Shown here: one piece after another, positions 1,529 through 14,646 of the stretch
How positions within the stretch are numbered: position 1 is the first letter of the stretch
How the letters are laid out: every line of letters begins with the position of its first letter
Origin: an uncultured Fidelibacterota bacterium
Lineage (GTDB): Bacteria; Fidelibacterota; Marinisomatia; Marinisomatales; UBA1611
Length of the DNA stretch: 21,147 nt
Direction of reading: 5' to 3'
Assembly (NCBI GenBank): GCA_913040915.1
Contig: CAJWHW010000032.1
Coordinates: 1 to 21,147 of the forward strand
Notes under the pieces: generated by a model
Databases searched by the model: none
What the model was told of the DNA's origin: nothing
What the model saw: only the letters and a program-made list of their open reading frames with translations
Translations under genes and position numbers: made by a program

Positions 1529-4500
1529 TTACAATTCTTTTCTTTTTATTACAACTAATGTGATATCATCATCATTCATTAATCCGGACATCCAGGAGTT
1601 ACCCAATTCAATCAAAGAATCAATAATGCCCTGCGCAGACTTATGACCATTTTCCTGAGTACATTTTTTAATTGAATCATAATCCAACATATCTCCTTTT
1701 GGATTTACGCATTCAGGTAACCCATCTGAGATTAATACAAATGCATCTCCTGGTTTCATATCAAATTTTTGATGGTCAAACTCTGCAAGTTTCATGGATC
1801 CTAGCGGCAATCCCGGGACAAGAATTTCTTCAACGGAGCTTTCTTGAGATCGATAGATATAACCTGGAGGCATTCCTGCTGATGTGAATTCAAAGGTACC
1901 ATTCTCAATTTTTGTCATATTTAGAGACATACGATTTGTGCCAAGATCAATAGTCTTAATCACTCGATTAAGACTCTGTGTAATTTCAGCGGGCGATTTA
2001 ACGGCAGTACTTACTAAGCCCGCCTTAGTAATTGACACCATCATTCCCGCATTTAAACCATGTCCTGTAGCATCACCAACCACCACATATAGTGAACCAT
2101 CTTTTTGAGGAAAGAAATCATAGTAATCTCCACCTACTTCTGTAGAAGTTTTCATATGAAATGCAAATTCGTAATCAGGGTGCTCCGGCGGTGACTGCGG
2201 AATTAATGACATTTGGAACTCTCTTGCCTGCTCTAATTCCTTCATTCTTCTCTCTTCTTCTAATTCATTTTTTTGTTTTTGCATCCTGAATTTGATAAAG
2301 ATGTAAATGCCAATAGATACAAGAAGGAAATAAATGCTAAATGCCCAATAACTTAGCAATGGGTGAGGTATAAATTTTATGCTAAGAATCTCCGGCTTAC
2401 TCCAAAGTCCATCATTATTAGAACCCTGAACCATAAACTGGTATTCTCCCCGACCCAGATTATTATAAGTTGCAAAACGAAGATCACCTGAATAAATCCA
2501 ATCTTTGTCCAGAGGGGCTAGCTTATACCTGTACTGGTTTTTAATCGTGTTGTAATAGTTAAGTGCAACAAAATCGATAGTAAATGATTTTATACCGTGG
2601 TCAATTTCAATATTACCTTCTACTTGACTTTTCTTAGCACTAATATCAAAAACTTCAATGATTTCATCATCAAAACTAGTTTTTTTAACACGAGTAATAA
2701 TACATGGGGGTTGATACTCATTATATTGAATTCCCGATGAATTCACCTTTGTTATGCCATTGGGACCACCAAAATAAAGGTTACCTAGTTCATCACTATC
2801 AAAGCAATTCCTATGATAATCTAAATTTCCAATTCCATCCATTAAACTATAGTTTACAAATGTTGTATCCTTTTGGTCAAAATAAGTAAGACCTTTTTTA
2901 GAACTGATCCATAGATTGTTATCCAAATCAATAGCAAGTGCTGTGATATAATTACTAGGCAATCCATCTTCCATGAAATAGTGAGAAAAGGTTTCATCTC
3001 TGTGTAAGTACTTATTGAGTCCACCTACTGTGCCGATCCAAACTGCCCCATTTTTATCTTCTGTAATACACGTAATTTGAGATGATGAAATACCTCCTGA
3101 TAAGGAAGGGTCAAATACATGGCCTTCTACCTCAAAATTATCTTCATTATATATATCTTTTACTAGATCTTTATCCAGAAAATAGATTCCTTCTCTTTCC
3201 GAACCTACCCAGACATTACCATTATTATCCTGAAATAAAATCCGGATAATAAGATCAGAATTAAAAAACTTAGTCTCCATTGCAAATCCATCAATAATTA
3301 AAAGACCAGTAGCAGTCCCAGCCCAGATATATTCATCATTTGAAACCATTAAGTCAAAGACTCTATTCTCCGGAATTTGCTGAGTCGCAGGCAAAGATTG
3401 ATCGTTCGAAAAACGAATCAAATCATCCGTCATTGTATTGATTCGAATGATGCCATCATCTGTTGCAACCCATATAATTTCATCATCAATTACTTCAACG
3501 TCTAAAATATGATCTATATTACCTAAGAATGATTTTTCATATTCATAGTCCCGAATACCATCCACTGACAAATATTCAAGGCCAAAACCAGTAGAAGCCC
3601 AAATCATTCCACTTTCCTGTGTAGCAATGGAATAAATCTTTTCATTCTTTAAACCCCATTCATTCTCACGATCAAATTGTATAGAATGGAATTTTGATTG
3701 AACATAAGAATGAAAGCTGATTCCATTTTGATTGGTCCCGATCCAGACATGACCAGCTTTATCTTCTATGAAACATTCAACAGTATTATCTGTAAGTGAA
3801 TTTTTATCGATAGGATCATGAGAGAAATGGTTAAATAATGTATCTAAGCCACCATGGTAAATATTTGGACTCTCATATAAACAATTGATACCCCGATTAT
3901 TTTTTGTAGTAAACCACAGATTTCCAGATTTCTCTGCAATCAAGATTTTTGATATATCATTTTCAATAATACTCTCAGCGTAGGGGGTCTCCTGATAATT
4001 GATAAAATGATTTGATTCGGGTTTGAATCGGGATATCCCATCTCTAGTTGCAATCCACAATTCTTTTCTCACCTTATCCCAGTCAAGATCTACAATAGTA
4101 TTTGATACAATAGAGTTTTTCCCGATGGTAAGTTTGTAGTGCTCTTCAACATTATTAAATTTTTTATTTATTTTATATAAACCATTACTTGTCCCCACCC
4201 AAAGGGTACCTTGTTCACCCTGTTCAATTACTTCTACCCTGCCAATATTTTCCCCATTACCAGTTTTAAATTCTTGAATATCTCCCGTTTCAGAATCAGG
4301 GTAAAATAAACCATAATCTGCCCCAATCCATATACCACGGTCTTCATCCATAAAAAGATTATAAATACTATTATTATTAAATAAGTCTGAGCGGCAAGTC
4401 TGACAAACTAAATCATTATTTTCGGGTAAAGTTTTAAATACGTGGTTTTTCCCTCCCTTACCAGATAAAATCCAAAGAGATCCATTTGCATCTTCAACAA

Positions 4501-4906
4501 TAATTTCGGGTGAAATAATTACATGACCTTCAGCGGTAGCTGAATTAAATGGACGGTCAAATTCACGCTTTGATGGATTAAATCGACTCACACCTAATTC
4601 TGTTCCAACCCATATTTTATTTTCAGAATCTTCAAAAATAGATGATACCTGATTACCAAGAAGCGATGAATTATCAAAAGACTTCATATGGTAATTCACA
4701 AAGCCATAGCCGTCAAAAATATCAAGACCATTTTCAGTTCCCAAGTAAATAAGTCCCTTTCGATCTTCATAAATTACTTTTACAGTACTTTCGGATAAAC
4801 CATCATGCACAAGAATGTTTTTAAATGAAAAATCTGGCTGGCAAAAAAGGTAGCCCGAGCATAATAAACCAATTACTTTATAAATATATAACGTGCGGAG
4901 AGCCAT
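1529..4906 (-). CDS. Membrane-anchored sensor phosphatase: periplasmic two-component-regulator beta-propeller, Y_Y_Y domain, TM helix and SpoIIE/RsbU-type PP2C phosphatase
   Basis: Many Reg_prop-type repeats (EDxxGxIWxGTxxGL). Y_Y_Y motif QYRYKL...ATYNNLGRGEYQFMVQGSNNDGLWS. TM helix WAFSIYFLLVSIGIYIFI. PP2C motifs GGDYYD, GDATGHG, SDG and DDIT. Confidence 0.92.
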   Translation of the reverse strand: MALRTLYIYKVIGLLCSGYLFCQPDFSFKNILVHDGLSESTVKVIYEDRKGLIYLGTENGLDIFDGYGFVNYHMKSFDNSSLLGNQVSSIFEDSENKIWVGTELGVSRFNPSKREFDRPFNSATAEGHVIISPEIIVEDANGSLWILSGKGGKNHVFKTLPENNDLVCQTCRSDLFNNNSIYNLFMDEDRGIWIGADYGLFYPDSETGDIQEFKTGNGENIGRVEVIEQGEQGTLWVGTSNGLYKINKKFNNVEEHYKLTIGKNSIVSNTIVDLDWDKVRKELWIATRDGISRFKPESNHFINYQETPYAESIIENDISKILIAEKSGNLWFTTKNNRGINCLYESPNIYHGGLDTLFNHFSHDPIDKNSLTDNTVECFIEDKAGHVWIGTNQNGISFHSYVQSKFHSIQFDRENEWGLKNEKIYSIATQESGMIWASTGFGLEYLSVDGIRDYEYEKSFLGNIDHILDVEVIDDEIIWVATDDGIIRINTMTDDLIRFSNDQSLPATQQIPENRVFDLMVSNDEYIWAGTATGLLIIDGFAMETKFFNSDLIIRILFQDNNGNVWVGSEREGIYFLDKDLVKDIYNEDNFEVEGHVFDPSLSGGISSSQITCITEDKNGAVWIGTVGGLNKYLHRDETFSHYFMEDGLPSNYITALAIDLDNNLWISSKKGLTYFDQKDTTFVNYSLMDGIGNLDYHRNCFDSDELGNLYFGGPNGITKVNSSGIQYNEYQPPCIITRVKKTSFDDEIIEVFDISAKKSQVEGNIEIDHGIKSFTIDFVALNYYNTIKNQYRYKLAPLDKDWIYSGDLRFATYNNLGRGEYQFMVQGSNNDGLWSKPEILSIKFIPHPLLSYWAFSIYFLLVSIGIYIFIKFRMQKQKNELEEERRMKELEQAREFQMSLIPQSPPEHPDYEFAFHMKTSTEVGGDYYDFFPQKDGSLYVVVGDATGHGLNAGMMVSITKAGLVSTAVKSPAEITQSLNRVIKTIDLGTNRMSLNMTKIENGTFEFTSAGMPPGYIYRSQESSVEEILVPGLPLGSMKLAEFDHQKFDMKPGDAFVLISDGLPECVNPKGDMLDYDSIKKCTQENGHKSAQGIIDSLIELGNSWMSGLMNDDDITLVVIKRKEL

Positions 4907-4930: not shown

Positions 4931-4960
4931 AAAAAAAAGGTGGCGAAATTTCGCGCCACC
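4931..4960 (-). terminator. Rho-independent terminator closing the TlpA / beta-barrel / selenoprotein unit
   Basis: Minus strand reads GGTGGCG-CGAAATTT-CGCCACC followed by T8, about 30 nt after the stop at 4992. Confidence 0.88.
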
Positions 4961-4991: not shown

Positions 4992-6485
4992 TTATTTTAC
5001 TAGAAGTGCTTTTTTTGTAGCTACTTGAGCTCCAGTCTGTACTCTGATAAAATACATACCTGTAGGTTGGTCTGTAGCATCCCAAAATAATGTATGAGAG
5101 CCTGCTTCCAACACTTTCTTTGACTGTACTACATCTACCTCCTTACCAATAGTATTATACACTGTTACTTGTGTTACAGCTTCTTTAGGCAGGGCAAAAG
5201 ATATCGTTAATTTGGGGTTGAAAGGATTTGGATATAATCGCTGAATCTGGATTGAATTAGGCATAACCCCTTCTACTAATTCCTTACTTTCAGAAAAGTT
5301 GACTCTGATCTCGCCAGCATTAGCACTGGCCACTACTGTATTGGTAAAATCATCAACAGTCAGTCCTGAAATATTAAATTCAATTTTTTGACGTGAATTT
5401 TTTCCTGTCATATCGTACCCGATAATAATGATTTTATTACCATTTTTAGCAATTTTTAGTGACCACCCTTCCGGCAGTAGAATTTGATTCAAATCAGTCA
5501 CAGTCAGATCAGTATTATCTATTTCAAATTGAAATCCGCTAATCTCATCAATGCTTTCTATTTTAGCTATGTTACCATTCTCAGATTGCAGAATGTTAAA
5601 TGTTCCATTGGAAAGTGCAGAAGTGCTCTGAGGGTTATTTCCTCCTAACAACATTTGAACAAGATTAATAACATCAATAATATTCACATTGTTATCACCA
5701 TTCATATTAGCTGCCTGGTATGCACAACTTTCTTGATTATTCTCAATTACAACATCTACTAAACTTAAAATATCCAATATATCAAAAATAAAATTACCAT
5801 TTTCATCCACACTGCCATCTATATTACCTCTTACCCAGACATTTGCATTATCACAATTATCACAAGCGTCTCCTAAACCATCCAAATCAATATCGGCTTG
5901 GCTAGGATTATAATCAACCGGACAATTATCACTCGGATCGTTAATATCATCCCCATCTGCATCCATGGGAACATTTTCAACTGCGGCATTTATCGCTGCC
6001 AAAATAGCAGCTTGATTAAAGCCTGCGCTAGTATATACAACTTCCATATTGTGATCTAGAACGACGTTATGCGGAATGGACCCCGTACCAAAAAGATTCC
6101 ATGCGGTGTTGTCTGCATCTCCATTGAGGATTGGATAAGTAATACCAAAAGATGATGACCAACCCGCGCATGAATAGGATGTATATTGAAAACCATGAGC
6201 AACCACTTGGACAGGTGCACCTGCGGCTTGGTAGTCTTGCCAAATTTGTTCGGTAATCGGAGCCTCCGATTGACATGGACCTCACCAAGAAGTAAAAAGC
6301 ATTAGCCAGGTTACTTTATAACTACCACCATTTATATCACCATTGCATTCCGTATATAAATCAAAATCTCCTGCCCCATTCGCACAAATCGGTTCTGTAA
6401 AGTTAGGAGATATATCGCCAACCTGTAGCGGTAATCCAAAAATACCACTGACAATTATTGTATGTATAATTAATGTTCTTAGCAT
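4992..6485 (-). CDS. Predicted secreted selenoprotein, 497 aa with Sec68 at TGA 6284..6282: signal peptide, thioredoxin/TlpA-AhpC-TSA-like domain (WUGPC), TSP type-3 repeats, dockerin-like domain and T9SS type-A-like C-terminal sorting domain
   Basis: ORF 6282..6485 and ORF 4992..6206 share a frame and only one TGA separates them. Read-through gives FTSW-U-GPCQSEAPITEQIWQDY...VQVVAHG...YPIL...SIPHNVVLD, a complete Trx fold. Later motifs are DADGD...DNCPVDYNPSQADIDLDGLGDACD, ANMNGDNNVNIIDVINLV and YPNPFNP...GMYFIRV...KKALLVK. Confidence 0.88.
6253..6274 (-). promoter_or_regulatory. Bacterial SECIS-like stem-loop just 3' of the in-frame UGA
   Basis: mRNA reads UGA-GGUCCAU-GU(C)AAUCGGA-GGC-UCCGAUU-AC: a 7-bp perfect stem plus 2 bp beyond a bulged C. 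The small apical loop starts with G, 17 nt after the UGA. Confidence 0.75.
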
Positions 6486-6541
6486 TTTTATTTTCTTTTA
6501 CAACTAGCCATATTAATAAAGAATTAATCAATTAAACAAAT

Positions 6542-8497
6542 TTAAAAAATCATGCTATAATTGAAACGTATACCATCATTATAAGGAGGAATTTGGCGGC
6601 AAATACCATTGCTGCAGAATAAACCACCCTGAATGGAGCCGTACATGATAGTTAATCGATGGGATGAACTTATATTATAGGATAATTCTATGGAAACCCA
6701 TCTCTGTTGTCCAAATTTTGGTGTTGATGTACGCTTTCTTTCACCGGTAAAATACTTAATATCTCCATATATCAAGGCTTCAAGAGGATTATAATATGGA
6801 TCTACAGTTTTGGGGCCATCAAATGCACTGGATTGGTCATGTACCAAGGTTAATGACCACTTTGATGCTTTACTAATAGTTAATGTTACCATACGGTTGA
6901 TTTGTAATCTTTCTCGGCCTCCGTCCAAATTATATAATTGTGTTTGGTAATCAACAATAAAAGAATCAGGGTTTTCAGAATCAATCAAATTCCATTTATC
7001 ATAAGTTGAACTGTAAAATGTAGCATTGCCACGGTTCACATTTTTTTTGGTTCTTTCCTGGTATTCAAAACTGAAACCCATGGCGTATCCATTATTAAAC
7101 GTATATGAAAGTTCTAAAGGATAAGTTATTGTTTTCGTTTCCTGCCAATACTTTGCTTCTACCTTATAGGGGTCAGAAAAACTTGTATCAAACACTTCCA
7201 TAGAATCAATTATCTCAAATTCATAGCCATAGGAATTAAATGTCGTTGTATCATACAGCCAATAAGAGTTAGTCACCATATCCGACTGAAACCCATCAAA
7301 ATAATTGATCATATATAGAACATCTTTATTATTCCCTCTTCCCAATCGGTAATAGAATCTACTGTCAATTAGAAAACCACTTAATTCAAAATAATTTTCC
7401 CAGAAAGGTAAACTGGATGGATCGCTACTAGGTAAAATATTATTCAATGCATTCCGCTCCCAGTCCGTAGATGTTAAAGACATCCAAGTATCATTTCGGC
7501 TTAAATGAGCATATTGCCCTAAAATATTTAAACCTAATGGCAGGGAACCAGTTAATTCGGCTTGGACGCCGCGTTCATCATTATAATTATATAAGTGAAC
7601 AGCACGCCCCATCAAAGTCATATTGGTTTCTCGACCAAGTGTTGGCATCATTTGAAACCCAATCCTATTACCATAATCGTCAGCATTTAAATCAGTATGA
7701 CTCCAATCAAAACTGTATTGTTTATATTCTGTCGTAAGTCCCCAGTTTCCAAAATATAAATTCAAATTACTGTACATACCATATCCACGCTTTAATGTAT
7801 CGTGGGCAACATCATTGTAGAAATCAGTTTTCTCAAATGATTGTTTATCTACGTATTCAAAGAAGAAATCCCAAGCTGTAAAAGATGCTGAACCGTAAAT
7901 ACCTTTTATTTTATGATTTACAAAAGCAGTTCCTTCTTCTTTTTTTTGATGCTCTTCATTAGAGTTCAGTTGTGTTAAACCAATAGAATAAGAATCAAAA
8001 TCATATTGAAGGTGATTTCCAAACATATTATGATTGTTATTAAAATATGGTAATCTATTATCATTCTCTCCTAAATCCCAAATATCCGCATTACCATTGA
8101 TGTGACTTAAGGTAAAGTCTCCCTTTGTATATCCTAAAAATAATCCTCGGGTACCGTTATCAAAATTTGTCATTTGATCATCAATTTGATTTAATACCAA
8201 ACCTCGTCCCCAGAATTCGTATAAGTCCCCTAATTTGATATTGAAATTTTCATCAGAATATTCTAATCGAAATTTTCTGATATCATTTGTTGTAAAACCT
8301 ATTTCTGGAGGATTGGAATATTCATATTGAACCCATGCAGAAAGATTTTTATAAAACATATTTATATCGAGTCTGTTTTCAGCAAAAGAATAAAAATCAT
8401 AACTATCTCCAAAACTGGAAATAATCGAACCATTATAATTAAAATCATTTGCGAATATTTTTCCGCAAATGAGAAACAGAATTATTATTTTTTTCAT
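6542..8497 (-). CDS. Outer-membrane beta-barrel protein, DUF6029-like, with a C-terminal GGLxCxxGxC motif
   Basis: Signal peptide and alternating aromatic beta-strands. N-terminal motif LGDLYEFWGRGLVL. C-terminus GGLFCSNGICRQIPP...IRFNYSMIF ends in Phe like a BAM beta-signal. The family name comes from recalled motifs, not an HMM search. Confidence 0.75.
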   Translation of the reverse strand: MKKIIILFLICGKIFANDFNYNGSIISSFGDSYDFYSFAENRLDINMFYKNLSAWVQYEYSNPPEIGFTTNDIRKFRLEYSDENFNIKLGDLYEFWGRGLVLNQIDDQMTNFDNGTRGLFLGYTKGDFTLSHINGNADIWDLGENDNRLPYFNNNHNMFGNHLQYDFDSYSIGLTQLNSNEEHQKKEEGTAFVNHKIKGIYGSASFTAWDFFFEYVDKQSFEKTDFYNDVAHDTLKRGYGMYSNLNLYFGNWGLTTEYKQYSFDWSHTDLNADDYGNRIGFQMMPTLGRETNMTLMGRAVHLYNYNDERGVQAELTGSLPLGLNILGQYAHLSRNDTWMSLTSTDWERNALNNILPSSDPSSLPFWENYFELSGFLIDSRFYYRLGRGNNKDVLYMINYFDGFQSDMVTNSYWLYDTTTFNSYGYEFEIIDSMEVFDTSFSDPYKVEAKYWQETKTITYPLELSYTFNNGYAMGFSFEYQERTKKNVNRGNATFYSSTYDKWNLIDSENPDSFIVDYQTQLYNLDGGRERLQINRMVTLTISKASKWSLTLVHDQSSAFDGPKTVDPYYNPLEALIYGDIKYFTGERKRTSTPKFGQQRWVSIELSYNISSSHRLTIMYGSIQGGLFCSNGICRQIPPYNDGIRFNYSMIF

Positions 8498-8500
8498 GAA

Positions 8501-9022
8501 TTAGGATTCAGACGATTTTGAATCCTTGAAACCAAGTATAACCTTGATCTGATGCTCGATCTCAACTTCCTCACCGGGTGAGTACCCCTGATGCCTCCAT
8601 TTGATACTACCATCTTTATCAACAAGTATAAGAGTTGGCATTATAAGACCGTTCAGCTTTTTAGCTATTTGCTGATTTGGATCCAACCCCACATAAAATT
8701 TATGATTTTGACTATTAATATAGGATTTTACTTTTCCTATACTTCTGGGTGTATCCTGATTGATCATAAGAACCTTAAATCCATTTTCAGAATATTTTTG
8801 ATGGTACCTGTCTAAATGCTTCATAACCTTTTTGCAAGGCTTACACCATGTTGCCCAAAAATCGATAAGTAGCGGACCATCTTGAAGAAGTTCATTGATT
8901 GAAGTCTTTTTTCCATTCAATAATTTAATTTTCAAATCAGGAACAGTGCGGCCTGCTACACCTTCATTAGCAATCAGCGTGCTAAAGAGAAAAATGAATA
9001 AAATGAGTGCGTTTTTTTTCAT
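8501..9022 (-). CDS. Exported TlpA/ResA-family thiol-disulfide oxidoreductase (WCKPC)
   Basis: DFWATWCKPC, cis-Pro loop IMPTLILVDKDG and WRHQGY. The start is moved from 9067 to ATG 9022 because MKKNALILFIFLFSTLIA is a clean signal peptide. Confidence 0.9.
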   Translation of the reverse strand: MKKNALILFIFLFSTLIANEGVAGRTVPDLKIKLLNGKKTSINELLQDGPLLIDFWATWCKPCKKVMKHLDRYHQKYSENGFKVLMINQDTPRSIGKVKSYINSQNHKFYVGLDPNQQIAKKLNGLIMPTLILVDKDGSIKWRHQGYSPGEEVEIEHQIKVILGFKDSKSSES

Positions 9023-9171: not shown

Positions 9172-10494
9172 TCAGAGAAGCGGATCTAAAAATGACTTCA
9201 GTTCATTTTCATTAACAAATTTCAGACTGACATTGCTCAAAAATTCAACTTCATTTACGGGAATAATAAATTCATAAACAGCCTGAATTTCAACAGTCTC
9301 CATGGCAATTTGCATCGACCATCCCCCCACTGTGAAATCTATAAGCTGTGAAAATTGATGCTGAGGAACATAAAGTACTTTATCGCTCGTTCTGGTGTGC
9401 CAATATTTTTCCGGTGTATCCGCAACTACAATTAGAGTACTTCGGTTTTGGTCAAATATACGTATGACGGGAATAGTTCTAAATGAACCAGACTTGATCG
9501 ATTCAACATGCTTTTGCGGGAAATTGAATGAATTTCTGTCAAAATAAAAAATAGTTAGTGTCCCGTTTTGCTCTAATCCCGTATAAGGCAATGTGGATAA
9601 CATATCCTTGATAATTTTATCTTTTAATTTATAAACCACTGGAAACCGGACTGTCATATATAAATCATCATCTTCATGATATTCAAATTCTGGCCTTTGC
9701 AATTCTACGTCATAAGGGTTAGTAAGCAGTTGGTCCAATACAGAAGATAACAAAGTAGTGTTACCTGCATTTTCAGGGTTATCTTCAAGTTTACGATCTA
9801 CATCAAAATCCATGGTCCATTCACCAGAATCAAATCTGGGGACTTCTTTTTTAACCCGTTTACCTTTTTCTCTGACCCTAGCACCCAAAAGAATATCCAT
9901 GGATGCTTCCAATTCTGCTATCTGATTGTCTAGACTTGAAACAACTTTATCAGTTTCTAAAGATACAGGATGGCGTTTTTTCTCAATTTTTGGTGCTGTA
10001 AAGGCTGGATAAGGGGAAACTTTTATCTTAGGAGGCTCTGGGAAATAAGGTGCTATCATCTCCTGTGTTGCTGAACCTACGGCCTTATTCAGAGCAGGAA
10101 TCTGTGAATAAACTTCGGTAATATTTCTAATAGCCAATTCGTCCCAGGTAGCAACATCTACTACCTGAATGGATACATGGATTTTATCTAATTGCCGGTT
10201 GTATTTCCCTAAAACTAGCAGATTTCGAGAACCTCGGGGCTGTTGTAACATCAAGGCACGGTCATTCATAATAATTTCAAGGTCATCTTTACTTTTTAAA
10301 CGGACACCATAATTATTTTTTAATTCACGAGATACCATGTCTGTTAATCCAGCTGCTATCCATTCTACTGCTGGATCATTTTGAATGTTATCAAAAGGCA
10401 GTAAATACACATAGGTATAGGGGTCTCGTGCCGAGATAATAGAAAGAAATAGTGAAATCGTAAGGAATTTGCGCATCCGGTGGTTTGGTTTCAT
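9172..10494 (-). CDS. Exported hypothetical protein with an N-terminal TolB-N/FlgO/CsgG-like domain
   Basis: Signal peptide MRKFLTISLFLSIISA (alternative start 10476). LLPFDN...EWIAAGLTDMVSREL...LVLGKY...IHVSIQVVDVAT is typical of this fold. The C-terminal region is not recognised. Confidence 0.6.
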   Translation of the reverse strand: MKPNHRMRKFLTISLFLSIISARDPYTYVYLLPFDNIQNDPAVEWIAAGLTDMVSRELKNNYGVRLKSKDDLEIIMNDRALMLQQPRGSRNLLVLGKYNRQLDKIHVSIQVVDVATWDELAIRNITEVYSQIPALNKAVGSATQEMIAPYFPEPPKIKVSPYPAFTAPKIEKKRHPVSLETDKVVSSLDNQIAELEASMDILLGARVREKGKRVKKEVPRFDSGEWTMDFDVDRKLEDNPENAGNTTLLSSVLDQLLTNPYDVELQRPEFEYHEDDDLYMTVRFPVVYKLKDKIIKDMLSTLPYTGLEQNGTLTIFYFDRNSFNFPQKHVESIKSGSFRTIPVIRIFDQNRSTLIVVADTPEKYWHTRTSDKVLYVPQHQFSQLIDFTVGGWSMQIAMETVEIQAVYEFIIPVNEVEFLSNVSLKFVNENELKSFLDPLL

Positions 10495-10552: not shown

Positions 10553-12226
10553 CTACACATTTTTCATCATTTTAGCCCAAGAATCACGAAGTGATACAGC
10601 ACGATTTATAACAAGCTTTTGATCTGTCGAACTCTTGGTATCCTTTACAAAATAGCCATTTCGTTCAAATTGATAGGTTATATTTTTTGGATTTGCCAGA
10701 CTAGGCTCCAGTTTAGCTTCTGGCAGTATTTTACAGGAACTCGGATTCAGATTAGGAATGAATTCGCCATCTTCTTCTGGGTTTTCTTTTACAAAAAGAC
10801 GATCATAAAGCCTTACTTCTGCTTCAACGGCACGAGTGGCCGAGACCCAGTGAATAGTTCCTCTAACCTTCCTCCCATCAGGAGATGAACCACCTTTTGT
10901 TTCAGGGTCGTATGTACAATGGATTTCAACAATGTTCCCTGAGTCATCCTTAACAATATCAGTACAGGTAATATAATAAGCATATCGAAGGCGTACTTCT
11001 CTACCAGGGCCTAATCGAAAAAATTTCCTGGGTGGATCTTCCATGAAATCAGATTGCTCAATATACAGTTCCTTTGAAAAGGGGATTTCTCTTATACCCG
11101 CATCTGGATCTTCTGGATTATTGATTGCTTCAAGCATTTCAGTTTTATTTTCAGGGTAATTTTTAATCACGACTTTCAACGGATCCAATACACCCATAAC
11201 TCGTGGCGCCCGCTTATTCAAATCTTCCCTGAGCGCATTTTCTAATCTTGTAACATCAATGATTGAATCCCTTTTTGTTACCCCCACATCTTCAGCAAAA
11301 TTTCGAATGGATTCTGGTGTGTATCCCCGTCGGCGCAAACCTGAAATAGTTGGCATTCTCGGATCGTCCCAGCCATCAACATAATTGTCATCTACCAGTT
11401 GTTTCAATTTTCGTTTGCTCATGACTGTAAAACTCAGATTAAGGCGAGCAAACTCAATTTGCTGAGGATGATATGTATCCAACTGATTTAAATACCAGTC
11501 ATATAACAGACGATGATCTTCAAACTCAAGCGTGCAAACAGAGTGAGTAATTCTTTCGATGGAATCTTCCAATCCATGGGCCCAATCATACATTGGATAG
11601 ATGCACCATTTATCTCCAGTTCTGTGGTGGCTAGCATGTAGTATTCTATACATAACGGGGTCCCGCATATTCAAATTAGGATGGGCCATATCAATCTTAG
11701 CACGAAGTACTTTTTCACCGTTTTCAAATTCACCATTTTTCATCCGGGTAAACAAATCGATGTTTTCATCAATGGATCGAGTACGGAAAGGACTTTCTTC
11801 CCCCGGTTCTGTTAGCGAGCCTCGGGTATTTCTTATTTCATCTCCCGATAATTCACAGACATAAGCCATTCCTTCTTTGACGAGTTGCATTGCAAAACTA
11901 TAAAATTGATCAAAATAATCGGATGCATAGAACAATCTTTCTTCCCAGTCAAAGCCCAGCCATTTCACATCTTCAATGATGGATTTGACATATTCTTTTT
12001 CTTCTTTCACCGGATTCGTATCATCAAATCTCAGGTTACACTTCCCCCTGTTTTTTTCCGCTATACCGAAGTTAAGACAGATGGATTTTGCATGGCCGAT
12101 ATGGAGATAGCCATTAGGCTCTGGCGGGAAACGGGTATGAACACGCCCGTCCCATTTTCCAGACACATTATCATCATCAATAATTTTTTGGATAAAATTT
12201 ATCGGTTCTTTTTGGATATCAATCAT
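10553..12226 (-). CDS. glnS: Glutamine--tRNA ligase
   Basis: [49 protein letters not shown] and QFERNGYF motifs; 557 aa. Confidence 0.98.
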
Positions 12227-12228
12227 AA

Positions 12229-13629
12229 TTAATATTGATCTAGTGCTTTATTTAATCTTTTTAAAACAGTCTCTTTTCCCAACAATCCCATCATAGCAAA
12301 AAGTGACGGGCCACTAATAGTTCCAGAAATAGAAAACCGGATTGGCTTCATTACTTTTCCAAAACCCAGACTATTGTTTTCTATAAATGATTTCAATACT
12401 ATTTCTAACTGTTCTTCATTCCAGGTGTCTAATTCTTCAAGAATATTTTTAACAGAAGTAATGATTTTACCTGTATCATCTTTCCAGATTGTTAACAATT
12501 CATTTTCATTAAAATTAATAGGATCATGAAAAAAAGAGTTAGCCTGATCCATGAGCTCCTTTAAAGATTTAGATCTGATTTTCAATAGCTCAATAACTTC
12601 CATACAAAAAGAATCTGATTCCGTATTTCCCCAATCAAAGTTGATATTATGAATTCCTGCTAAAATTTCTTCATTTCGCTGGTTCATCATATGCTGTCCA
12701 GAGATCCAATTTAACTTTTTCTCATCAAAAACAGCACTCTTCTTATGTACTTTAGTTAAATCAAATTTATCAATGATTTGGTCCAAACTCATAACTTCTT
12801 CTTCCGTACCTGGATTCCAGCCAAGTAAAGATAAGTAGTTTAGTAAAGCATCCGACTGATATCCTTCATCCCGATAGGTCTGAACACCGGTCGCACCATG
12901 CCGTTTGCTCAGAAGTTTTTTGTCCTTTCCTAAAATCATTGGTAAATGTGCAAATTCAGGGACATTCCAATCAAGGGCCTCATAAATCAAGATTTGTTTT
13001 GGTGTATTTGAAATATGGTCTTCACCACGGATAATATGAGTAATACCCATTTCATGATCATCAACGACATTGGTTAAATTATACACAGGACTTCCATCAG
13101 AACGAGCGATAATAAAATCATCCAATTCAGTATATGCTACAGTGATTTTCCCATAAACAGTATCGATAAAAGAAGTTTCTTTTCCTTCAGGAATTTTTAA
13201 TCGGATTGTAAAAGGTGTACCTCTATCTAATTCAGGTTTTATTTCATGTTCTGATCTATCTCTCCAAATGCCTGGATAGGAATAAGACCCGGTATCTTCA
13301 CGGATTTTCTCCAGCTCTTCAGGGGTTGCAAAACACTGGTAAGCATTTCCTGACTTAAGTAGCTTTGTAATGCAGCTTTGGTAAGCATCAATTCGTCTGG
13401 ATTGATAAACTAAATCTTCGTCCCAATTCAACCCTAGCCATACCATTGACTCACAAATCTGATCAATAAATTCCTGTTTAGACCTCTCAATGTCTGTGTC
13501 TTCAATTCGAATTAAAAATTGACCAGAATTCTTTCTGGCAAATAGGTAATTGAATAAAGCAGTTCGTGCACCACCAACATGAAGTTGTCCTGTGGGACTA
13601 GGGGCAAATCTGACACGCGGTTTCATCAA
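12229..13629 (-). CDS. gltX: Glutamate--tRNA ligase
   Basis: [35 protein letters not shown] and LSKRHGA motifs, with a C-terminal anticodon-binding domain. Confidence 0.97.
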
Positions 13630-14542: not shown

Positions 14543-14557
14543 TGATATAATCTATTG

Positions 14558-14646
14558 CGGAGGGGGAGGGATTCGAACCCCCGAAGGGCGTAAACCCTTG
14601 CTGGTTTTCAAGACCAGTGCATTCAGCCAGACTCTGCCACCCCTCC
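14558..14646 (-). tRNA. tRNA-Ser(TGA); CCA not encoded
   Basis: GGAGGGG acceptor stem, CTGGT-CT-TGA-AA-ACCAG anticodon arm, long variable arm, GGTTCGAATCC and a G discriminator. Confidence 0.96.

Follow-up and report, generated by a model that had tools for sequence, protein, structure and literature searches.

How could a thiol or selenol protein displayed on the surface of a diderm bacterium be supplied with reducing power across the outer membrane? To our knowledge, no pathway that would deliver it to such proteins has been described. The question is raised by a three-gene cassette of an uncultured Fidelibacterota bacterium (GTDB lineage Bacteria; Fidelibacterota; Marinisomatia; Marinisomatales; UBA1611; GenBank assembly GCA_913040915.1), found in a stretch of 21,147 nucleotides (nt; contig CAJWHW010000032.1, positions 1 to 21,147), hereafter called the window. 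The cassette encodes a TlpA/ResA-like reductase, a DUF6029 outer-membrane beta-barrel and a selenoprotein predicted to be secreted by a type IX secretion system (T9SS), which is referred to below as the cargo. As suggested by our comparative analysis, the three proteins very probably act together in thiol chemistry of the cell envelope, and our leading reading, which we hold tentatively, is a thiol/selenol relay that would cross the outer membrane through the barrel. The features on which the argument relies are the following.

8501..9022, minus strand: gene of a TlpA/ResA-type thiol:disulfide reductase, 173 amino acids (aa) from ATG
6542..8497, minus strand: gene of a DUF6029 outer-membrane beta-barrel, 651 aa
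6599..6616, minus strand: codons of the barrel Cys pair C628-S-N-G-I-C633, in a small beta-hairpin of the last long loop
4992..6485, minus strand: gene of the T9SS-secreted selenoprotein (cargo), 497 codons with one in-frame TGA
6282..6284, minus strand: in-frame UGA, credibly U68 in W-U-G-P-C (residues 67-71)
6255..6271, minus strand: hairpin resembling a selenocysteine insertion sequence (SECIS), 7-bp stem AAUCGGA/UCCGAUU with a GGC loop, 13 nt after the UGA
5007..5237, minus strand: T9SS type A C-terminal sorting domain, cargo residues 417-493, PF18962
4931..4960, minus strand: intrinsic terminator closing the three-gene unit

The genes are co-oriented and separated by 3 nt (8498..8500, TlpA to barrel) and 56 nt (6486..6541, barrel to cargo), and the terminator is formed by a 7-bp stem with six G-C pairs at 4960..4939, an 8-nt loop and a T8 tail. 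This layout, together with the motifs WCKPC, CSNGIC and WUGPC, had been described in an earlier inspection of the DNA (the sequence-only reading) and was confirmed here in all its elements. The locations predicted at that time held as well: periplasm for TlpA, which has a signal peptide without lipobox, outer membrane for the barrel, which is modelled with 24 strands, and cell surface for the cargo, which carries a T9SS C-terminal domain in a genome with PorU and SprA. Export of all three proteins is predicted from N-terminal signals judged by eye (basic residue first, then a hydrophobic stretch), and the structural models show an N-terminal helix that spans residues 2-16 in the barrel and 2-13 in the cargo. 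An 11-bp inverted repeat, terminator-like except for its T-poor tail, lies inside the first barrel codons (8445-8472, minus strand), about 25 nt past the start, and could have an effect on translational coupling with TlpA.

The arrangement was followed across 201 sampled genomes of the phylum, 103 of which contain DUF6029. The census comprised 60 top-scoring loci from 58 of the 102 other positive genomes, scanned over 6 kb per side, and with the window and one further locus (L007) amounted to 62 loci in 60 genomes. Conservation of synteny had been named beforehand as a point on which the proposal could fail, and it was found: all 62 loci have a TlpA-type domain directly upstream of the barrel, encoded on the same strand. 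The distance between the two domain envelopes is below 200 nt in 60 loci (221 and 331 nt in the other two), and the spacing of the genes ranges from a 9-nt overlap to a few tens of nt. Genomes with two cassettes possess an own TlpA for each barrel (L051 and L074 in G178; L047 and L084 in G014). The downstream gene was assessable in 61 loci, L069 stopping at a contig end. An iterated local profile detected a thioredoxin-fold/Omp28-like domain with CxxC or UxxC in 54 of these, and an NCBIfam ResA-like match added L047, giving 55 downstream thioredoxin-fold genes; two loci (L082 and L084) carry a T9SS-tailed Redoxin gene just before TlpA instead, which raises the loci with adjacent cargo to 57/61. 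The cargo is a UxxC selenoprotein in 37 of the 61. The three-gene arrangement, kept in the same order in related loci, is beyond chance.

The distribution of the families across the genomes follows the same line. Omp28 (PF11551) occurs in 46/201 genomes, 43 of which also contain DUF6029 (the exceptions being G039, G002 and G120), and two families (f24 and f26) have neither Omp28 nor DUF6029 (0/33 and 0/30) despite SprA in 32/33 and 30/30 of their genomes; since the genomes are related, this co-occurrence is to be taken as a pattern and does not amount to a statistical test. In public genome contigs, the search with the barrel returned as closest relatives two Marinimicrobia (SAR406) metagenome-assembled genomes.

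The TlpA-like protein of the window carries W-C-K-P-C at residues 59-63 with its only two Cys; its signal-like N-terminus contains no Cys and hence no lipobox Cys. It is a member of the Pfam families Redoxin (PF08534; 7.1e-23, 81.5 bits vs cut-off 26.6) and AhpC-TSA (1.7e-21, 76.9 bits vs cut-off 26). Its scores against the NCBIfam ResA subfamily NF002854 (2.4e-23, 82.9 bits) and the TlpA equivalog NF047696 (53.9 bits) are below the cut-offs of 170 and 230, respectively, which makes it a member of the fold family and of neither named orthologue group. The closest PDB chains are ResA 4nmu (4.5e-20), DsbE 3gl3 and, third-best, 2m72 (1e-17), whose entry is named 'uncharacterized thioredoxin-like protein'. 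W56, C60, P62, C63 and the cis-Pro P129 are invariant across 48 homologues. Other thioredoxin-like genes of the same genome share at most 31% identity with it, and the exported ones at most 28%; because its paralogues are only distant, the window protein is a dedicated copy. A DsbD-type membrane protein is encoded in the genome (DsbD_TM, 75 bits), and its gene adjoins another TlpA-like paralogue, not that of the window.

The cargo matches the sorting-domain models Por_Secre_tail PF18962 (7.6e-11, 42.6 bits vs cut-off 27) and TIGR04183 (43.3 bits vs cut-off 23) and, furthermore, AhpC-TSA (3.6e-6). The T9SS machinery is present in the genome, which is 85% complete (PorU with 563.5 bits vs cut-off 420; a SprA match of 1.6e-91, G000), and more than 40 further frames with T9SS tails are encoded there. 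In the AlphaFold2 model of the cargo (predicted local distance difference test, pLDDT, 80.4) a thioredoxin fold spans approximately residues 30-170, with U68 opening helix 69-87, and is followed by a poorly ordered thrombospondin-type-3 (TSP3) segment, a dockerin-like helical part at 236-281, a beta-sandwich at 292-401 and the sorting domain at 425-495. Superposition of the head on ResA, DsbE and CcmG yielded template modelling (TM) scores (target) of 0.78-0.82 with root-mean-square deviations of 2.4-3.2 A. A second Cys pair (C34/C106) and the cis-Pro P138 are invariant in the alignment of cargo homologues.

Membership of the cargo in the Omp28-related selenoproteins (NF045500) was considered and rejected: the score is 105.6 bits vs 200, and only model positions 243-376 of 377 were matched, covering cargo residues 144-280, with a head that is ResA-like W-U-G-P-C and not Omp28-like. 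The window cargo is a ResA-like head on the chassis of the Omp28-related selenoprotein family. Members of NF045500 proper (380-537 bits) occupy the same cassette slot in seven relatives and share with the window cargo the TSP3/dockerin-like segment, the beta-sandwich and the T9SS tail. The remaining cargo classes of the census are proteins with T-S-T-T-U-x-x-C, which score slightly below the NF045500 cut-off, the class of the window with a ResA-like W-U-x-x-C head (14 loci, and two more with an added propeller), and Cys lipoproteins of Omp28 type. A swap of heads was observed within one genus, where the cargo proteins of L043 (4157-5935, minus strand) and L045 (7663-9156, plus strand) are 72% identical over the C-terminal 326 aa, one head being of Omp28 type with U-P-Y-C and the other of ResA type with W-U-G-P-C. 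Such a swap on a fixed chassis indicates that the redox head is the exchangeable functional part and the one that matters to the cassette. Cargo residues 144-280 (5646-6056, minus strand) have calcium-binding repeats of TSP3 type and a pair of dockerin-like helices in common with the Omp28-related selenoproteins, and the beta-sandwich gave a weak cohesin/FN3 row in Foldseek (2w1n).

The in-frame UGA of the cargo gene is best read as selenocysteine, credibly so, and the evidence now gathered upholds what the sequence-only reading had proposed. The codon takes the first Cys position of W-C-x-x-C, a motif kept without exception in 15 homologues; opposite U68, Cys stands in L064 and L090, which are uninterrupted, and U in 12 further homologues. 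Genes for SelA (492 bits), SelB (324 bits) and SelD (386 bits) are all present in the genome. With one fixed rule applied to all sites and shuffles, a hairpin comparable to that of the window was found after 30 of the 37 UGA sites of cassette cargo genes, vs 128 of 1850 mononucleotide shuffles (6.9%). The stems vary in sequence and yet pair, as in L051 (GACGGA/UCCGUC) and L095 (AGGCGGA/UCCGCUU). The SelD gene contains one in-frame TGA of its own (G000:C6:66560-67486, L123), and the SelD of this genome is probably itself a selenoprotein.

The middle gene of the cassette codes for a DUF6029 protein (PF19494; 1.5e-20, 73.8 bits vs cut-off 27); the match falls into two stretches and covers the C-terminal motif. 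The protein ends with C-S-N-G-I-C-R-Q-I-P-P-Y-N-D-G-I-R-F-N-Y-S-M-I-F, the terminal residue being Phe as in 89 of the 150 best representatives of the family. Apart from one Cys within the signal peptide, C628 and C633 are its only cysteines, and the mature protein contains these two alone. The AlphaFold2 model (pLDDT 89.6, predicted TM-score 0.86) shows in its DSSP string 24 long strands, of which the first begins at residue 19 and the last ends the chain, with no plug and no extra N- or C-terminal domains. The connections from even to odd strands, 11 in number, all measure 2-4 residues and those from odd to even strands 5-44 residues, as is classic for barrels with short turns on the periplasmic side and long loops outside. 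The Cys hairpin (strands 625-629 and 632-636) is inserted between strand 23 (613-622) and strand 24 (639-650) and, by the usual topology rule, is predicted to be extracellular. The model thus puts the Cys pair in the last extracellular loop and not at the periplasmic face.

The Cys pair is invariant across the family. Among 55 aligned barrels (L040, L057, L065, L068, L069, L073 and L079 being omitted as broken, cut by a contig end or near-duplicate), the invariant columns are seven Gly, C628 and C633, with no other non-Gly residue. C-x4-C was found in 60 of the 62 census barrels, the exceptions being the split gene L040 and the cut gene L069. A search of a library of 1.84 billion proteins with the barrel profile returned 2258 clusters at E<=1e-3 and 435 at E<=1e-30. 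Among the 150 best representatives, 138 have C-x4-C within the last 45 residues and the 12 others are all truncated C-terminally (profile match ending at or before 515 of 588), so that the motif is present in 138/138 C-terminally complete proteins; exactly two Cys were counted in 70 of the 150.

Structural comparison with VIA-align ranked the ushers FimD (3ohn_B, Z 17.8) and PapC (2vqi_A, Z 16.4) highest, and MtrB (6r2q_B) reached Z 13.8 with 434 residues aligned to the barrel. Numerous unrelated barrels scored at Z 12-15, and with scores as generic as these only the size class of the barrel is secure. In the PDB, the sequence search with the barrel profile returned spurious RecA rows only, and Foldseek returned only generic TonB-dependent barrels with TM of about 0.4.

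In the relay that we favour, TlpA would act as periplasmic reductase, presumably supplied by the DsbD of the genome, and would dock in or beneath the wide lumen of the barrel. The barrel would be the membrane-spanning link, and its C-x4-C hairpin would hand reducing equivalents to the surface selenoprotein, which would leave the cell via the T9SS and expose its head with the selenocysteine motif W-U-G-P-C at the cell surface. The selenol would thereby be held reduced in oxic seawater and be able to turn over. The need for a relay follows from the consideration that turnover of a surface thioredoxin or selenoprotein in oxic water requires re-reduction; the barrel is assigned the crossing because TlpA is the only part of the cassette linked to a reductant and the barrel the only part that spans the membrane. 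A reducing direction is suggested by W-C-x-P-C of TlpA and by the DsbD gene directly before the cassette in L097. In thiol relays such as the DsbD cascade, Cys pairs of thioredoxin folds take turns with pairs outside that fold, and nDsbD has its redox-active pair on a beta-hairpin; a hairpin of the barrel placed between two thioredoxin folds agrees with this alternation. Judged by the dimensions of usher pores, the plug-less 24-strand lumen of the model would be wide enough for a thioredoxin domain and could admit one of the size of TlpA. In this scheme we infer the localisations, the contacts, the existence and direction of electron flow and the substrate.

The sequence-only reading had compared the cassette with DsbD/CcdA. 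This analogy was not upheld as the best one, since MtrCAB is closer in architecture. The pathways from DsbD/CcdA to TlpA, ResA or CcmG resemble the cassette in a TlpA-fold W-C-x-P-C protein, a relay of Cys pairs and the DsbD gene in the genome; however, their end points are periplasmic (cytochrome c, Sco/CoxB or DsbC), whereas here the reductase is tied to an outer-membrane barrel with a Cys pair and to a surface protein. We know of no thiol-reducing pathway that crosses the outer membrane. The MtrA-MtrB-MtrC complex (6r2q) likewise combines three parts: a redox protein in the periplasm, a large barrel without plug and a redox protein at the surface. Unlike the cassette it is haem-based and without sequence relation, and the carriers here would be Cys or selenocysteine (Sec) pairs, so the resemblance is functional and architectural only; the neighbours of the DUF6029 barrel are thioredoxin-fold proteins, and no cytochrome gene was found in the window. 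It is possible, though somewhat doubtful, that the cassette represents a 'porin-thioredoxin' conduit as a thiol/selenol counterpart of MtrCAB, with TlpA in the lumen, the C-x4-C hairpin, and interchangeable Omp28- or ResA-type heads using Cys or Sec.

Surface-exposed thioredoxins have precedents. The pneumococcal lipoproteins Etrx1 and Etrx2 are surface-exposed and TlpA-like, are supplied by CcdA and act as reductants of a methionine sulfoxide reductase at the surface, and the structure of Etrx2 (4hqz) matches both the cargo head and the TlpA of the window. Unlike the bacterium studied here, their host is Gram-positive and has no outer membrane to cross and no barrel. According to the abstract of PMC2907840, HBP35 of Porphyromonas gingivalis is a surface-displayed T9SS cargo that has a thioredoxin motif and a C-terminal sorting domain, and its recombinant form shows thioredoxin activity. 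In contrast to the window cargo, HBP35 uses Cys and binds haemin, and that abstract neither reports it beside a TlpA-barrel pair nor addresses a route for re-reduction at the surface. Our literature search yielded no description of a TlpA-DUF6029-thioredoxin cassette, none of Omp28 with a selenoprotein, and only unrelated mentions of TlpA with Omp28; by title and abstract, the literature on Marinimicrobia selenoproteins contained nothing on the cassette.

Several observations weigh against the proposed relay. The census loci are the best-scoring hits from related genomes of one phylum, and their counts overstate independence. Four of the 61 assessable loci have no adjacent cargo (L042, L061, L097 and L040, in which the gene is broken). 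An extracellular Cys hairpin leaves TlpA access only via the barrel lumen, and the model would thus oblige the reductase to enter it. Fusions of TlpA with the barrel or of the barrel with the cargo were absent among the 150 best representatives (218-760 aa), and no fused form was found in a search limited to proteins of 1141-3255 aa, the latter being weak evidence. Conserved loop disulfides of outer-membrane barrels are usually structural, and the barrel Cys pair could be a structural staple.

Among the alternatives to the relay, the one that survives best, unlikely as we consider it, makes the barrel a dedicated export or anchoring pore, comparable to an usher, a two-partner secretion pore or a Slam-like protein, that would move the thioredoxin-fold cargo, small T9SS-tail proteins or TlpA to the surface or hold them there. 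TlpA would in that case keep Cys reduced prior to export, and no electrons would cross the membrane. The top fold matches to FimD and PapC and the lack of a plug are consistent with such a pore, but the likeness among large barrels is generic, as the many unrelated matches indicate. The ushers share 24 strands and an alignment over the whole barrel with the DUF6029 protein, yet they possess an internal plug and periplasmic N- and C-terminal domains, of which the window barrel has none; pilin or chaperone genes do not accompany it, and the sequence identity is 11%. The adjacency of a cargo gene in most loci would also suit an export function. However, most cargo proteins, that of the window included, bear a standard T9SS type A tail, and SprA is present in 198/201 genomes, so that a second pore is not obviously needed; the invariant extracellular Cys pair would be left unexplained as well.

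The same alternative draws on small proteins encoded beside TlpA. In six loci a T9SS-tail protein of about 250 aa precedes TlpA, and by size alone it resembles PorA of P. gingivalis (246 aa). According to the available text of PMC7712824, PorA (PG2172) arrives at the surface independently of the T9SS translocon, and by its locus tag, as given in the accessible part of PMC13744359, PG2172 adjoins Omp28 (PG2173) and lies near the thioredoxin-domain protein PG2175. The P. gingivalis genes are thus alike in that, by locus tag, Omp28 has as neighbours a protein with a thioredoxin domain and a small protein with a T9SS tail; these tags are consistent with the Bacteroidota synteny mentioned in the sequence-only reading. 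They differ in having Cys instead of Sec and an Omp28 that is a lipoprotein and not a T9SS cargo, and in the passages of the literature that could be consulted PG2172, PG2173 and PG2175 were not found treated as a unit. If the barrel did serve export, it would be a new small pore for the export of proteins, and possibly the route of PorA to the surface of P. gingivalis.

Less probable still, and in our view improbable, is that TlpA matures a structural disulfide of the barrel, and perhaps cargo Cys, with the barrel carrying an unrelated solute or polymer such as a polysaccharide. The tight coupling of the TlpA and barrel genes and the commonly structural nature of barrel loop disulfides agree with such a role, though a reductase would be an odd helper in disulfide formation. 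The suggestion of a polysaccharide comes from the available text of PMC9603273, in which DUF6029 is linked to Wzi-like barrels by HHpred and found near polysaccharide-export genes. No polysaccharide-export genes were found in the window or the scanned flanks, and Wzi was not among the best 50 VIA-align rows, a result that does not exclude Wzi. Maturation of the barrel would, moreover, leave unexplained the CxxC/UxxC surface protein in 57/61 loci and the co-occurrence of Omp28 with the barrel.

That the gene order is merely inherited synteny without joint function is very improbable: the census does come from one phylum, and the gene order farther upstream (GluRS, GlnRS and a 430-aa protein) is also kept in closer relatives, but the TlpA-barrel-cargo core persists beside wholly different genes upstream (DsbD, C25 peptidases, YhhN, hydrolases) and in second copies per genome, while cargo head and anchoring type change. 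Least of all do we expect the UGA to be a genuine stop that separates a 67-aa peptide gene from a 404-aa gene with no selenoprotein, for which speak the failure to find tRNA-Sec in the 85%-complete genome and the 63 nt 3' of the UGA, folding no better than shuffles (z -0.87), and against which stand the exact position of the UGA at the first Cys of the invariant W-C-x-x-C with homology continuing across it, the presence of SelA, SelB and a TGA-containing SelD, and the local hairpin at SECIS distance after most cassette UGAs. The best match to the Rfam tRNA-Sec model (46.3 bits vs 47; window 14557-14646, minus strand) is a tRNA-Ser, as assigned by ARAGORN, with anticodon TGA and a long variable arm.

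If the relay through the barrel proves true, it would be the first electron conduit based on thiols and selenols that crosses the outer membrane of a bacterium. In that case its possible jobs would include the reduction of disulfides in particulate protein, the repair or activation of C25-type surface cysteine peptidases and the removal of peroxide; in two relatives a C25 peptidase adjoins the cassette. In the cassette we see a concrete candidate route, as widespread as the barrel clusters in the protein library, with redox heads swapped on a common secreted chassis. Furthermore, genomic context is gained for a marine selenoprotein family that ranks among the most abundant; 'hypothetical protein GOS_C', a UxxC selenoprotein of thioredoxin-like fold, was listed with 74 marine sequences according to the available text of Zhang & Gladyshev 2008 (PMC2398784).

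The gene before TlpA (position '-2') was scanned in 40 of the 62 loci. At this position the window has the following feature.

9172..10494, minus strand: gene of an exported protein of 440 aa that matches neither Pfam nor NCBIfam families, 104 nt upstream of the open reading frame of TlpA

A protein of about 430 aa without Pfam match occupies this position in 14/40 loci, the window included, and is conserved there in same-order relatives. As a lead only, the atlas neighbours of the window protein are FlgO/CsgG/LpoB-like clusters, and it may belong to the module as a fourth part specific to the lineage or be an accessory to it. T9SS-tailed Redoxin genes were found at '-2' in 4/40 loci, with a fragment of one in a fifth (L090), near-bare T9SS-tail proteins of about 250 aa, within one family, in 6/40 (L070, L075, L079, L083, L092 and L093), and an Omp28 gene in 1/40. 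A complete DsbD with DsbD_N, DsbD_TM and Thioredoxin_7 stands there in L097 (8037-9965, minus strand), the locus without adjacent cargo mentioned above. C25 (gingipain-type) peptidases of about 1500 aa with propeptide and dockerin were encountered in L077 (861-5369, plus strand) and L086 (759-5276, plus strand); these two loci also carry tandem cargo genes, one Sec and one Cys paralogue.

The other genes of the window, on the same strand, are housekeeping genes: GlnRS, GluRS, TyrRS, an ABC-2 transporter and two tRNA-Ser. The GlnRS-type (10553-12226) and GluRS-type (12229-13629) genes, both on the minus strand, are in tandem 2 nt apart, and their order upstream of the cassette is retained in many relatives of the same order. 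Right after the cassette terminator lies the gene of a sensor-like protein of 1125 aa (1529-4906, minus strand) with Reg_prop beta-propellers, Y_Y_Y, a membrane segment and a SpoIIE/PP2C phosphatase domain. The same architecture is found directly before TlpA in L071 (1916-5338, plus strand), and this protein may provide a regulatory link to the cassette.

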